Positions 4,265 to 63,340 of a stretch of DNA of 64,000 nucleotides are shown here, piece by piece. The position numbers and the translations under genes are program-made. Under the pieces are notes generated by a model. The model did not search any database. It saw nothing but the letters and a program-made list of their open reading frames with translations, and had not been told where the DNA came from. The stretch comes from a virus: the IMG/VR virus record IMGVR_UViG_3300025154_000063, positions 1 through 64,000 of that record; one strand, 5' to 3'. How positions within the stretch are numbered: position 1 is the first letter of the stretch; every line of letters begins with the position of its first letter.

Positions 4265-4332
4265 TTATCTGCCAAAGACCGTCTGAAATCGTTTGAAGTA
4301 AGTGTAAACAAATTAATAATAGAGGTGTCGTT

Positions 4333-4722
4333 ATGGCAGGAGAAACAAACAATGTGACAGGTGAGTTAATACTTGACCTCCTGAAAGAACAAGGATTAAA
4401 AATTGATGGGTTAGCCATATCACAAACTACATTGGTTACAAAGGTAGAACAGCTAGAAAAGAATACTGAAAGTTTAAAAGAAGGACAAAAAGAAATATCT
4501 GAAAAGCTAGAAGGCCCAGCTGGGTTAACTGTAAAGTCTGAATTATTAAAAGCAAGAGTTGATGCAATTTCATCTACATGTGCTGCACGAATTGCTAATC
4601 AACAAAACAAAGATACTAGAGCAAGAGATAATTTAAAATCAATCATAATTCCGATTGTAGTGAGTATAGTTCTGTTTATTATTTACTCAGTTATACCACA
4701 TGTTATTACAATAACACCTTAA
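4333..4722 (+). CDS. Coiled-coil protein with C-terminal TM helix (XhlA/holin-like)
   Basis: Heptad region followed by hydrophobic IIIPIVVSIVLFIIY; in lysis cassette. Confidence 0.55.
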   Translation: MAGETNNVTGELILDLLKEQGLKIDGLAISQTTLVTKVEQLEKNTESLKEGQKEISEKLEGPAGLTVKSELLKARVDAISSTCAARIANQQNKDTRARDNLKSIIIPIVVSIVLFIIYSVIPHVITITP

Positions 4723-4734
4723 GGAGAAATTACT

Positions 4735-5085
4735 ATGGCAGTTAGATTAGAAGAAGTTGTACAAACAACACAGAGAACCACTGGTTTGCTTCCAGTATTA
4801 ACACAAGCGATTGCAGAAGGTATGTACTTTGATAATAAGTCACAGAAGAATGTGGTTATTGTCAAGAATACTGGTGCTGGTTCAATCAACATCACAATTC
4901 AAACACCCGCAACTCTTGATGGTGATGCAATTGCCGAGCGTGTTGTGGCAGTAGCAGCTGGAGTAACAAAATTAATCGGCCCATTCCATAATGGTATTTA
5001 TGGACAAACAGGCGACCTTGTGTATGTCGACACAGACACATTTGCTGACACCACTTGGGGTGTTATCGCTCTGGGTGCTATCTAA
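4735..5085 (+). CDS. Small beta-sandwich virion/decoration-like protein, paralog 1
   Basis: Shares KNTGAGSIN-x-TIQTPA, AERVV-x-VAAG, IGPF-x-N, LVYVDTDT with the next ORF. Confidence 0.6.
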   Translation: MAVRLEEVVQTTQRTTGLLPVLTQAIAEGMYFDNKSQKNVVIVKNTGAGSINITIQTPATLDGDAIAERVVAVAAGVTKLIGPFHNGIYGQTGDLVYVDTDTFADTTWGVIALGAI

Positions 5086-60002: not shown

Positions 60003-60818
60003 ATGGTTAAAAATAAAGATTTAGCAATTAGAGAAGACGCAGATTGGAATACCCTTGTATCTGCTTTAATTGATGAGATGGATACACAAGATATGCCCGA
60101 CAAAGTTATAACAGCTACGGAGTTATTACTGTGTGGATACCCAACAACAAAAGTAGCTAAAGAAATTGGAGTTACATCACAAACAGTTAGAAACTGGCTG
60201 TCATCATACCCTATAATGTCAGACATAATTGCTAGAGGAAAACCGCTCTTAGCACAGTGGCGCATGTCCAAACTTGAACAACAATTCTTTAAAGCAATTA
60301 ATAGGTCTGAGGATATACTTGGCGTTTCTTTAAGTGGCATTGACACAAAGACTGGTGAAAAAGTAGATGCAAAAATACTTACTGTTGTTGCAGCACAAGC
60401 CAGATATATTATTGGATTGTTTGCTGGTCAGCAATCTAATGTTAATGTTAGACACGAGCTTGATGACTCATTACTGCTTGCTCACACGGATGCACTAGAC
60501 TATATTACTCTACAGATGAAGAAACATCGTGAAGCAAATGAACCTATTGATGCAATAGTCAGAGTTATTGATGCTAAAGTTGATAACACAGCTCCCATGC
60601 TTGATGAAAATGGTGATGCACTATATGGAAAGCTCGGAGAAATTGATAAAACAGAAGATGGTATTCTTTGTCATGTTTGTGGCAAACGTCTACGAGGGTT
60701 CTCAGCACACATATCAACAGCACACACAATGACTGCAGACGATTATGAACTGATATTTGCTCTACCAACAAACTTACTTTCAAAAGCAGAAGACTACTGG
60801 AAAAATAAAAATGATTAA
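60003..60818 (+). CDS. Probable terminase small subunit (HTH + Ros/MucR-like Zn finger)
   Basis: HTH TTKVAKEIGVTSQTVRNW; C-terminal CHVCG...H...H..T-x-x-x-Y; directly upstream of TerL. Confidence 0.65.
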   Translation: MVKNKDLAIREDADWNTLVSALIDEMDTQDMPDKVITATELLLCGYPTTKVAKEIGVTSQTVRNWLSSYPIMSDIIARGKPLLAQWRMSKLEQQFFKAINRSEDILGVSLSGIDTKTGEKVDAKILTVVAAQARYIIGLFAGQQSNVNVRHELDDSLLLAHTDALDYITLQMKKHREANEPIDAIVRVIDAKVDNTAPMLDENGDALYGKLGEIDKTEDGILCHVCGKRLRGFSAHISTAHTMTADDYELIFALPTNLLSKAEDYWKNKND

Positions 60819-62691
60819 GATTAATGAGGAGCTAGCAAGTCTAGCTAGAAAAGACCCACTAGTTTGGGGTATTTTGCACGTTGATTTGGGGGATGGAAAA
60901 AAGTGGGAAGTTGAAACAAGAGCATGGATGAAAGAGATATATTCTGTTGTTAATCCATATGATATTGAAAGGTCTCCAGAAGGGTTAGCAAGGCGTATGT
61001 CTGTCATAAAAAGTACACAGTCTGGTCTTAGTACCATGGGTGTTGTTCGTATGCTACACTTTTTAACATCTTGGCCTAGTAGAGTAATTTACACACTACC
61101 TCGCCAAATGGACTCTATTGATTTTGCAACCACTCGTCTTGACCCCATCCTAAGGAAGTCACCATATCTTCGTGGACTACTTGGTTCTCCAGACTCCGTA
61201 CATGCTAAACGTATAGGAGATAGTTTTGCTTACATACTAGAAATGAGTGTTGAGCCTAGGTCTATCCCAGCAGATATTATCTTTATTGATGAGGTAGATT
61301 TGTCTGACCCAGCCAACATATCAACAGCACTCAACCGTCTCGATGCGTCTCGCTGGAAACTAAACTATTTCTTTAGTACCCCAACATTACCAGCTTATGG
61401 AATTCACTCCATCTATGAGGGAAGTGACATGAGGGAGTGGCTTGTTAAATGTCCAACATGTAACCACGAACAACTCATAGAATGGGAAACACACCTAAAG
61501 ATTGTAGGAACAAACCATAATCCAGAGAAGGTTTATTTTGGTTGTATAAGATGTGGTGCTGAAATAACACTGCCACATATACAAACAGGTAGATGGATTG
61601 CACAAAAACCAGACCTATCAAATCATCATATTGGCTTTCATGTATCCCAGATATTGTCATACTCTGCTTGGGATTTGTATAGGATTTTCCGTGACCCACA
61701 GACAAACATCATGGAATTTTATAGAAAACGTCTTGGTATGCCATATGAAATCAGTGGTGGTTCTATAACCCGTGATGACATTATGGAACAATGTTTTCTA
61801 GAACCATATCCAGAAGAAGACATTAGAGATAAAGACTCACAATACTTCATGGGTGTTGACCAAGGAAATGAATTACAGGTTCTTATAGGAAAGTTAGAGC
61901 CCGAATCAAACGTACCTAAATTGGTACACGCTGAACTCGTTCCAATGGAAAAGGGGTTCGACCGCATAGGTCAGCTTATGAATATCTTTAAAATAAAGCG
62001 CTGTGTTGTTGATGCAAACCCTAACAGACATGAGGCAGTAAGATTGGTTAAAGCATTTCCAAATAGGGTACTTATTGCAGACTACATTGAACAAAAGGAA
62101 ATGGTTAAGATTAAAAAATCTTTACTTGAGCTTCCTAAGCTCTTCACAGGTGTTGCAATAAACAGAACACTTGGATTTGATGCACTTGTAGCAGACATTA
62201 AAGATGGTAAATGGATGATGGCTGGTGAATTACCTAACCTAAGCTCTGAAATGGAACTGGTGATTGACCAGATGACCGCCATAAAGAGAGACCTAGAAAC
62301 AAGAAAGACCCCATCAGGTGAAGTACAAGTAGCTGTGTGGCGAAAGATTAGAGCAGACCACTTTGCACACTCTTGGCTATATCTAAAGACCGCCATTGAT
62401 GCCTTTAAAAAACGTGGTATGCGTATTGCTGTCATAGGAAAAACAGATATTGTTGAGGAAAGCTTGACAGAGATACTAGAAGATGATATAATTAAGAAAG
62501 CTATTTCTTCTTTGGCAGAAGTTCCACTTATTCAGCTTGCAGATTACTTAGCAAACTGGGAGTCAGAGGACTATGAGTACCCGTTCCCATTAAGCCATAA
62601 GATAGATGTTTGTAGAACATACGGTATTGGTGAACAGTATATTTTAAAGGCAATGGAAAAATTGGTCATTGACTCTAAACCAAAACTATGA
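60811..62691 (+). CDS. Terminase large subunit, gpA-like
   Basis: KSTQSGLS, IFIDEVD, STPT, CPTC..CIRC, GVDQG, DHFAH. Confidence 0.85.
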   Translation: MIKINEELASLARKDPLVWGILHVDLGDGKKWEVETRAWMKEIYSVVNPYDIERSPEGLARRMSVIKSTQSGLSTMGVVRMLHFLTSWPSRVIYTLPRQMDSIDFATTRLDPILRKSPYLRGLLGSPDSVHAKRIGDSFAYILEMSVEPRSIPADIIFIDEVDLSDPANISTALNRLDASRWKLNYFFSTPTLPAYGIHSIYEGSDMREWLVKCPTCNHEQLIEWETHLKIVGTNHNPEKVYFGCIRCGAEITLPHIQTGRWIAQKPDLSNHHIGFHVSQILSYSAWDLYRIFRDPQTNIMEFYRKRLGMPYEISGGSITRDDIMEQCFLEPYPEEDIRDKDSQYFMGVDQGNELQVLIGKLEPESNVPKLVHAELVPMEKGFDRIGQLMNIFKIKRCVVDANPNRHEAVRLVKAFPNRVLIADYIEQKEMVKIKKSLLELPKLFTGVAINRTLGFDALVADIKDGKWMMAGELPNLSSEMELVIDQMTAIKRDLETRKTPSGEVQVAVWRKIRADHFAHSWLYLKTAIDAFKKRGMRIAVIGKTDIVEESLTEILEDDIIKKAISSLAEVPLIQLADYLANWESEDYEYPFPLSHKIDVCRTYGIGEQYILKAMEKLVIDSKPKL

Positions 62692-62703
62692 TATAATTAA
62701 TGT
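62669..62703 (+). promoter_or_regulatory. sigmaA-type promoter overlapping the TerL stop
   Basis: TTGACT-17-TATAAT (TG extended) then TAATGT. Confidence 0.85.
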
Positions 62704-62717
62704 ATAAGTTTTTACAA

Positions 62718-63050
62718 TGGTTTTCCACGGTCAGAGGATTACCTACATACTGGCAAGAAATCGCCTTCGGACGATGAGTCTCAAGGAACTACTTGAAGTA
62801 GTTCGCAAAACTCGTCTAGGTACAGTGGCTGACGCACGGATGTTGACTCTGTTATGGAGACTTTCAACAAGACGCACTCACACCCAACGTGCAAAAAGTG
62901 GGTGCGTCTATAATTTATATGCACATGAACACTAGAAACCCCCCGTCCTCGTATGGGGAACACAGTGAGTCTGGTAAAGCGAGACTTGGGCAGATGCTCT
63001 AATTGAGCGTAGCTGTGTTCTTATTTCCCCTTTGTTTGGCAAGGGGGGAA
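62718..63050 (+). ncRNA. Candidate ~330-nt multi-hairpin ncRNA downstream of terminase
   Basis: About ten stems incl. GAACTACT/AGTAGTTC, AGACGCACTCAC/GTGGGTGCGTCT, GAACACAG/CTGTGTTC; GC-richer than flanks; own promoter. Confidence 0.6.
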
Positions 63051-63121
63051 TATATCAATTTACTTTTAGTATATATTTATACTTATTTTTAAAGCACGTC
63101 ACAGAGCACTTAGGAGATAAA

Positions 63122-63340
63122 ATGATATTTAATTTAGTAACAAAAAGTGATTTAGAAAAATCTATATTAAAAGGAATAATGGAAAGTATTATTACTTTAG
63201 ATAAATCTAAATCATATATTCTGGTGTTTCCAGAAGAATTAGAACTTTCAGTAGACATAGCTAAACAGTTAGCAGAGTTTACTAAAGAGCATAATATGTT
63301 TATTATACAGTCAAATAATCTTAAATTAATTGAACTGTAA
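63122..63340 (+). CDS. Hypothetical protein
   Basis: GGAG SD before ATG 63122. Confidence 0.55.
   Translation: MIFNLVTKSDLEKSILKGIMESIITLDKSKSYILVFPEELELSVDIAKQLAEFTKEHNMFIIQSNNLKLIEL

Follow-up and report, generated by a model that had tools for sequence, protein, structure and literature searches.

A predicted, multiply knotted RNA with an EGFOA-type core between the terminase and head genes of a phage lineage

Which kind of element occupies the stretch directly behind the large terminase gene (terL) in the phage of IMG/VR virus record IMGVR_UViG_3300025154_000063? This record comprises 88,993 bp, was rated complete by CheckV, and its first 64 kb (positions 1 to 64,000) constitute the window analyzed here. 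A first-pass annotation of the window had proposed that terL is followed by a large structured RNA of a novel kind. We found that this stretch very probably is the gene of a non-coding RNA of about 350 nucleotides (nt), which belongs to the EGFOA family (Rfam RF02955) as an enlarged, divergent representative. Thus, the RNA had correctly been described as structured, non-coding, and equipped with its own promoter, but it is not novel, since its core is a divergent EGFOA RNA and syntenic relatives score above the Rfam threshold. The elements of this assignment are:

62669-62697, plus strand: sigma-70-type promoter (-35 box TTGACT at 62669-74, 17-nt spacer, -10 box TATAAT at 62692-97)
62704-63056, plus strand: predicted RNA of about 350 nt, its start inferred from the -10 box and its end from where conservation stops 3' of the last hairpin
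62926-63019, plus strand: EGFOA-type three-way junction as placed by Rfam (stems C, D, and E, hairpin F)
62941-44/62955-58, plus strand: stem C, with CGUCCU in its loop
62959-65/63013-19, plus strand: stem D, closing the junction according to the Rfam alignment
62969-73/62991-95, plus strand: stem E, around a 17-nt loop (62974-90)
62996-99/63005-08, plus strand: hairpin F

A covariance search against Rfam, which had been recommended before, placed EGFOA at 62926-63019 of the plus strand as a sub-threshold match (27.9 bits; E-value 0.031 over 4 kb and 0.0036 over 471 bases), and with it the earlier statement that the RNA matches no known family falls. Taken on its own, this match is weak. In the 471-base region, only EGFOA and a chance match to tsr31 were obtained at E-values up to 10. 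The window carries the EGFOA motif CCGUCCU at 62943-49, and the equivalent of the family's CCCAG motif is CCCAA at 62883-87, with a matching change in its pairing partner. The stem GAACACAG/CTGTGTTC, which had been described as closing a three-way junction, was retained as a predicted stem. When we inspected the 17-nt loop GUAAAG...GACCUGGG, we found it together with a flanking stem of 4-6 bp (stem E) in 18 of 18 sequences. A search for the outer stem returned 8-11 bp in all six sequences run, but shuffled sequences equalled that in 0.08-0.86 of the trials, i.e., true and shuffled sequences were not separated.

The RNA shares with EGFOA the three-way junction (closed by a stem in the Rfam alignment), the hairpin with the 17-nt loop, the CGUCCU loop, the upstream CCCAG-type motif, and the phage or environmental setting. 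It differs from the family in several respects. An additional H-type pseudoknot separates the CCCAG-type motif from the CGUCCU loop, a knotted 5' domain of 165 nt and a closing pyrimidine/purine hairpin are present, the hairpin that precedes stem E in the Rfam model is missing while one following stem E has been gained, and the RNA has a fixed place behind terL with a promoter of its own.

For comparison with relatives, we used 253 terL homologues (E-value 1e-10 or better among 8000 scored candidates). Peptide patterns derived from the single terL protein yielded no relative in viral contigs and a terL alignment was needed; alignment of 31 homologues led to 21 viral loci, 1 locus in a Chloroflexia metagenome-assembled genome (MAG), and 22 metagenome loci (15 of them close). 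Duplicates were set aside by eye (L012 as L010, L022 as L007, L025 as close to L017, L027 and L038 as L026, L029 as L028, L032 as L015, L033 as L020, L034 as L016), and so were L005 and L035 (cut at terL) and the distant loci L040-L046, which left 26 distinct relatives with sequence 3' of terL. Among these, 17 carry the EGFOA-type loop motif with its flanking stem. As judged by eye, four others (L020, L030, L031, L037) have a structured stretch here that is divergent, free of genes, and terminated by a similar hairpin, but the core could not be placed in it. The remaining five (L006, L011, L015, L028, L039) carry genes or tRNA arrays in this slot instead.

The gathering score of EGFOA was exceeded in five of the 18 related loci searched, each time just 3' of terL on the plus strand (L004, 49.0 bits; L019, 42.9; L018, 40.8; L021, 38.5; L008, 37.8). 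Scanning of viral contigs with the loop motif retrieved one phage contig (L002, identical to L021), and here the order is terL end, promoter, a gene-free stretch of some 400 nt containing EGFOA, a G/C hairpin, and a similar small ORF.

The 3' domain contains the core and three further elements:

62870-62924, plus strand: H-type pseudoknot with stem A (62870-81/62898-909) and stem B (62889-93/62920-24)
62883-87 with 62986-90, plus strand: long-range helix T (CCCAA with UUGGG), its partner strand being the last five bases of the 17-nt loop
63022-63056, plus strand: last hairpin, its 5' arm rich in pyrimidines and its 3' arm in G, plus a short conserved tail

Helix T reads CCCAG:CUGGG in most phages, UCCAG:CUGGA in L013, L016, and L007, and CCCAA:UUGGG in the window; L019 has one mismatch. 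In 18 sequences, its covarying column pairs were CG (14), UA (3), and UG (1) at one position and GC (17) and AU (1, the window) at the other. For helices T and E together, 98.9% of the cells in these sequences were paired and seven of the ten pairs had changed on both sides, which includes all five pairs of stem E. The covariation score was reached by none of 500 shuffles, and shifting the partner by one column lowered the paired fraction to 41-49%.

The first loop of stem A holds the CCCAA motif, and the 5' strand of stem B follows. In the window, stem A comprises 12 bp (0 of 300 shuffles); it had been noted before as a stem and stands as one half of the H-type pseudoknot. At least 8 bp were found in 12 of 18 sequences, with unrelated letters, and in these twelve at most 0.10 of the shuffles matched the observed length; in L003, L014, L007, and the L024/L026/L004 group, this stem is weak or has a different architecture. 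The 5-mer of stem B was fixed by position only, namely by its 6-nt distance from the CCCAA motif. With this anchoring, 12 of 13 sequences offered a Watson-Crick partner in the 30 nt that follow stem A, versus 0.42 expected from shuffles, and when G-U pairs were allowed, 13 of 13 did so versus 1.58. Free searches in single sequences gave no significant result for stem B, in contrast to the position-anchored test.

The last hairpin (63022-63052) had also been predicted correctly. Its G-run and the tail could be aligned by eye in 16 of 16 sequences and mark the place where conservation ends. It is not followed by a U run and was not called a terminator by the scan. Two ideas on this region were rejected: pairing of the conserved tail with an ACAUAGA-like motif fits only L008 (by eye), and the spacing between the G-rich arm and a start codon 3' of it is too short and inconsistent.

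The 5' domain (165 nt) contains a pseudoknot of its own:

62718-24/62735-41, plus strand: hairpin P1, loop carrying GUCAG, wobble-rich in this phage
62730-34 with 62829-33, plus strand: pseudoknot PK1 (GUCAG with CUGAC), about 100 nt apart
62770-74/62812-16, plus strand: helix G, enclosing the hairpin 62786-93/62797-804
62841-46/62864-69 and 62847-50/62856-59, plus strand: hairpin taken from the computed fold

Hairpin P1 has 7 bp in the window, a length that a fraction of 0.056 of the shuffles reaches, and a stem of at least 7 bp surrounds the motif in 11 of 13 sequences with differing letters. In an end-anchored alignment of the 13 sequences, 12 of which had letters at this place, 96.7% of the PK1 cells were paired, with the variants GUCGG:CCGAC and GUUAG:CUAAC and the pair types CG/UA/UG and AU/GC. 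For helix G, the corresponding value was 83.6%; four of its five pairs change on both sides, and a non-standard pair occupies the second position in 8 of 11 sequences. Taken jointly, PK1 and helix G had 90.4% of their cells paired and a covariation score that none of 500 shuffles reached. For all these counts, we did not use global MAFFT alignments (whole RNA; 3' domain), which misplaced variable stems. A covariance model built from the window alone found eight relatives at the right places but misplaced stems A, D, and E in several of them, and its alignment was likewise not used.

Several findings speak against the assignment to EGFOA or reduce the weight of the counts. The window remains below the gathering score of 37.7 bits (27.9 bits, and 21.2 bits in another RF02955 search), and Rfam puts the 5' CCcAG motif on a non-matching stretch at 62926-35, whereas covariation places it at 62883-87. 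The motif is misplaced similarly in L021, and this may be the reason for the low scores of these RNAs. Moreover, the sequences used for covariation come from related phages and the segment ends were chosen at motifs, which inflates the agreement; in L003, L007, L014, and L036, the 5' motifs were placed with the complementarity known, with the same effect. The Rfam model under-detects and partly misaligns such variants, as the sub-threshold scores of both the window and record G002 illustrate. An RF02955 search of G001-G004 found nothing, but since G002, in which the core is recognizable by eye, was among the records missed, its outcome is weak evidence of absence.

As a whole, the transcript is predicted to fold into two domains plus a closing hairpin and to be knotted rather than nested. 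When 62700-63055 of the plus strand was folded as RNA, we obtained -119 kcal/mol compared with -95.7 ± 5.1 kcal/mol for 100 shuffles (z = -4.55), none of which was as good; the first-pass annotation had named a fold no better than that of shuffles as a finding that would refute its proposal. Its description of some 330 nt as almost continuously paired does not hold, because at least three interactions cross each other and the fold is not a simple nest. The pairing GTCAG/CTGAC was retained, but as pseudoknot PK1 and not as a nested helix. TGTTGA/TCAACA (62841-69) was also retained, while three other proposed helices were dropped: for GGTTT/AAACC, one AAACC (62677-81) is part of the promoter spacer and thus precedes the presumed transcription start, and a second AAACC, at about 62936-40 inside the RNA, would be another candidate partner; ATCG/CGAT conflicts with helix G, which covaries; and for TACCTA/TAGGTA, no counterpart was seen by eye in relatives.

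The minus strand of this stretch also folds better than its shuffles (z = -2.88). This would fit an element that works at the level of DNA, for instance a site for packaging, replication, or recombination with a fold adopted by single-stranded DNA. We consider this highly improbable, because the plus strand is clearly better, because G-U pairs occur in several helices (stems A and E; UG/GU types elsewhere) and would become A-C on the other strand, and because a conserved promoter lies upstream and a contig from an RNA library covers the stretch.

This 205-nt contig of a sediment metatranscriptome library aligns to 62728-62932 with eight differences, four of which are listed. The changes 62788 A>G and 62802 T>C together convert an A-U into a G-C pair, a compensatory exchange, in the hairpin 62786-62804, which had been predicted before. 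The change 62789 C>T turns C-G into U-G, and in the 62841-69 hairpin a U-G pair becomes U-A through 62856 G>A. Thus, all four listed changes preserve or improve pairing.

The RNA is overlapped by an open reading frame (ORF):

62717-62935, plus strand: 72-aa ORF with ATG start, judged not to be a gene

If this ORF were a real small gene, the structure would be incidental. The frame is open and starts with ATG, but as had been observed before it lacks a Shine-Dalgarno sequence by reading of the sequence. It belongs to no PHROG family, and tblastn gave no match in the RNA regions of relatives (best E-value 0.37, elsewhere), whereas the next small ORF was matched in six loci. The longest plus-strand ORFs in the relatives' RNA regions (24-79 aa) do not resemble it, and in the near-identical library variant the 62856 G>A exchange converts its codon 47 from TGG to the stop codon TAG. 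A conserved coding signal, which the first-pass annotation had listed among the findings that would overturn its view, was not detected. We regard a protein-coding role of this ORF as next to negligible, and these data support a structured non-coding RNA equipped with its own promoter rather than a protein gene.

The promoter that overlaps the terL stop was borne out. It matches 11 of 12 consensus bases in the promoter scan and has an extended -10 TG at 62689-90, which coincides with the TG of the terL stop codon TGA (62689-62691). In all four relatives scanned (L021, L008, L007, L019), a promoter of 10-12/12 with TG is located at the equivalent place, and 14 of 23 sequences conformed to a strict promoter pattern at the end of terL. 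The RNA begins about 15-30 nt after the promoter and has the orientation of the downstream genes in all loci seen. As separate observations, the 3' portion of terL contains a perfect 12/12 sigma-70 match with extended -10 TG (62464-62492, plus strand), which precedes the promoter of the RNA by about 205 nt. In L004, the terL frame continues into the conserved 5' domain of the RNA (about 4290-4400, by eye), and the promoter and the first hairpin are apparently missing (by eye), yet this locus has the top EGFOA score (49 bits).

The slot behind terL holds tRNA genes or arrays in some relatives (L011, 4945-6274; L015, 5876-6634; L020, 5186-5897; L013, 4304-4375; L016, 4300-4370), and these tRNAs have promoters of their own. 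Therefore, the slot holds genes of stable RNAs. In L013 and L016, the tRNA with its promoter is followed by a second promoter and the EGFOA-type RNA.

What might such an RNA do? Our literature search on EGFOA found neither a function nor a described genetic context, and titles and abstracts offered no related work on structured RNAs between terminase and portal genes. Reference 41 of a preprint (bioRxiv 10.64898/2026.07.01.735769) attributes the family to Weinberg et al. 2017 (PMC5737381), the main text of which does not contain the name EGFOA. For two EGFOA RNAs, the preprint describes cryo-EM structures, namely a trimer (with a hexamer class) and a strand-exchanged dimer. We tentatively regard a stable folded RNA that acts in trans as the best reading of the data. 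It is based on the Rfam typing of EGFOA as an sRNA gene, the compact knotted fold, the EGFOA oligomers seen in vitro, the tRNA genes in the slot, and the second promoter with which L013 and L016 supply the RNA after a tRNA.

A number of observations are unfavorable to a trans-acting RNA. A terminator-like site 3' of the RNA was found in none of the five phages scanned (window, L021, L008, L007, L019), and a second promoter before the next gene was present in one of them only (L008); the RNA may therefore never be a separate molecule. The library contig is no proof of transcription because such libraries can contain DNA, and the positions it does not cover carry no information on expression. 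The EGFOA oligomers were shown in vitro for other, shorter members.

The lack of a terminator-like site in all five phages, and of a second sigma-70-like promoter before the next gene in four of them, would suit a cis-acting leader of the head-morphogenesis operon, i.e., the 5' part of a transcript that runs into the small ORF and the portal, protease, and capsid genes. Such a leader might serve antitermination, sensing of a signal, or control of mRNA stability. The HK022 put RNA, which renders RNA polymerase resistant to termination, likewise lies directly after a strong promoter and before a long operon. A leader would also fit the strong promoter just upstream, the constant orientation with the downstream genes in all loci seen, the location of the portal, protease, and capsid genes within 2-6 kb, and the fact that the RNA-less relatives L006, L011, L015, and L039 retain the promoter at the terL end. 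However, Rfam types EGFOA as an sRNA, and antiterminator leaders such as put RNA are far smaller and simpler; we know of no leader of this kind that approaches 350-600 nt with several pseudoknots. In addition, an ORF of about 1 kb stands between the RNA and the conserved small gene in L013 and L016, and in L011 and L015 this small gene is located elsewhere with no EGFOA near it. On balance, we consider a leader function possible but rather unlikely.

If the RNA acts in trans, as we tentatively prefer, the sequence of events might be as follows. Host RNA polymerase would initiate at the strong promoter overlapping the terL stop. In the 5' domain, the hairpin loop would knot onto the downstream strand, in the 3' domain the loop of the H-type pseudoknot would reach into the 17-nt loop of the EGFOA three-way junction, and the pyrimidine/purine hairpin would close the RNA. 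The RNA might be cut out of a long transcript at this last hairpin or persist as its 5' end. The compact knotted fold would give a stable RNA particle, possibly a homo-oligomer as formed by two EGFOA RNAs in vitro, which may bind or hold a partner, either a protein or a nucleic acid, and in this way act in trans during infection.

A more specific proposal is that of a self-assembling morphogenetic cofactor in phages with lambda-type (GpA) terminases, the oligomer of which would dock on the portal or the terminase, or nucleate head assembly, and would thus resemble the phi29 pRNA in function but not in fold. The position between terminase and portal genes, here and in relatives, fits this proposal, and so do the trimers and the hexamer class that EGFOA RNAs form in vitro according to the preprint (bioRxiv 10.64898/2026.07.01.735769). 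Like the RNA described here, pRNA is a phage RNA; it oligomerizes and is part of a packaging machinery. However, the Rfam search at E-values up to 10 gave no pRNA match in sequence or structure, and the terminase is of the GpA type (PF05876) and not a phi29-type ATPase. To our knowledge, GpA-type (lambda-type) terminases do not require an RNA. Five of the 26 distinct relatives have a GpA-type terminase but no such RNA behind terL, and Rfam gave no EGFOA in three RNA-less records, which are incomplete and were covered by the search that also missed G002. The promoter is of host type and early-looking. The absence of the RNA from relatives with the same terminase and the missing pRNA match weaken a pRNA-like role, and we judge such a cofactor quite improbable. 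If it existed, packaging RNAs would have been invented twice, independently of each other, here and as the phi29 pRNA.

Among other large RNAs, ROOL and GOLLD are comparable in that they are, as far as PMC5737381 describes them, large, intricate, often phage-borne, and often located beside tRNA genes. They form RNA-only multimers according to the preprint (bioRxiv 10.64898/2026.07.01.735769), whereas the RNA of the window is smaller and has a different fold. Rfam gave no ROOL or GOLLD match in the window region, and none at gathering score in the 18 related loci.

EGFOA is an orphan family, represented by a catalogue entry and, since 2026, by cryo-EM structures. The present data indicate that its 108-position motif is only the core of a multiply knotted RNA of 250-600 nt in one phage lineage. 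This RNA is preceded by a strong promoter of its own, occupies a constant position between terminase and head genes, and has its parts tied together by a long-range helix. For this lineage, our analysis adds helix T, including the compensating change specific to the window, the pseudoknot of the 5' loop, the variant whose ORF is interrupted by a stop codon, and the numbers of relatives in which the RNA is present or absent; parts of these findings may already be in print.

The surrounding genes place the RNA stretch between terminase and head genes:

60003-60818: small-terminase-like gene
60757-62691: terL, GpA-type large terminase (PF05876, E-value 2.5e-24)
63122-63340, plus strand: 72-aa ORF, the first gene 3' of the RNA, conserved
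between this ORF and the portal gene: 195-aa ORF and several small ORFs, two of them with zinc-ribbon matches under the Pfam cut-off
about 65195-66811: portal gene
3' of the portal gene: protease-like gene, capsid-like gene, and head-tail adaptor

The portal, protease, and capsid genes are reached within 2-6 kb 3' of the RNA. The G+C content of the RNA stretch (0.42-0.43) is slightly higher than that of its flanks (0.26-0.40).

The downstream 72-aa ORF (63122-63340) gave tblastn matches in six loci at E-values of 1e-4 or better, and with a profile it was found in 26 loci. The small protein comprises 66-127 aa as called and has the motif ..LDP.K.YIL.LP.. near its middle. It is located 3' of the RNA in all RNA-bearing loci but is also encoded in phage records without the RNA behind terL and is thus not tied to it; in the RNA-less phages, no EGFOA was found near this gene. 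No Pfam or PHROG family was assigned to the protein, and a profile search of the PDB gave nothing credible. A PELOTA-like RNA-binding protein was considered and rejected, since the Atlas value of 0.77 is under a level often reached by shuffled proteins. Near the small gene of G002, a weak Rfam match to the skipping-rope RNA was seen (L051, 1154-1226, minus strand; 26.3 bits with a gathering score of 36.7; E-value 0.015). By eye, a short motif containing GTACT occurs in several copies 3' of the last hairpin and 5' of the small gene in L007 (about 4760-4840) and L014 (about 4800-4880), and L013 and L016 have different short repeats there. These repeats 5' of the small gene may form a regulatory or phage-specific promoter region.

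A blastn search of cultured phages with the RNA region gave no match, and in tblastn with terL the best identity was 28%; therefore, no close cultured relative exists among them. Groundwater metagenomes hold DNA of this phage. The module of terL, RNA, and small gene is also present in L024 (CAWBGK010000016.1), a 255,880-bp contig of an uncultured Chloroflexia MAG, and the G002 record (L009) is classed as a provirus by IMG/VR. The MAG contig and the provirus class are a possible hint at host and lifestyle.

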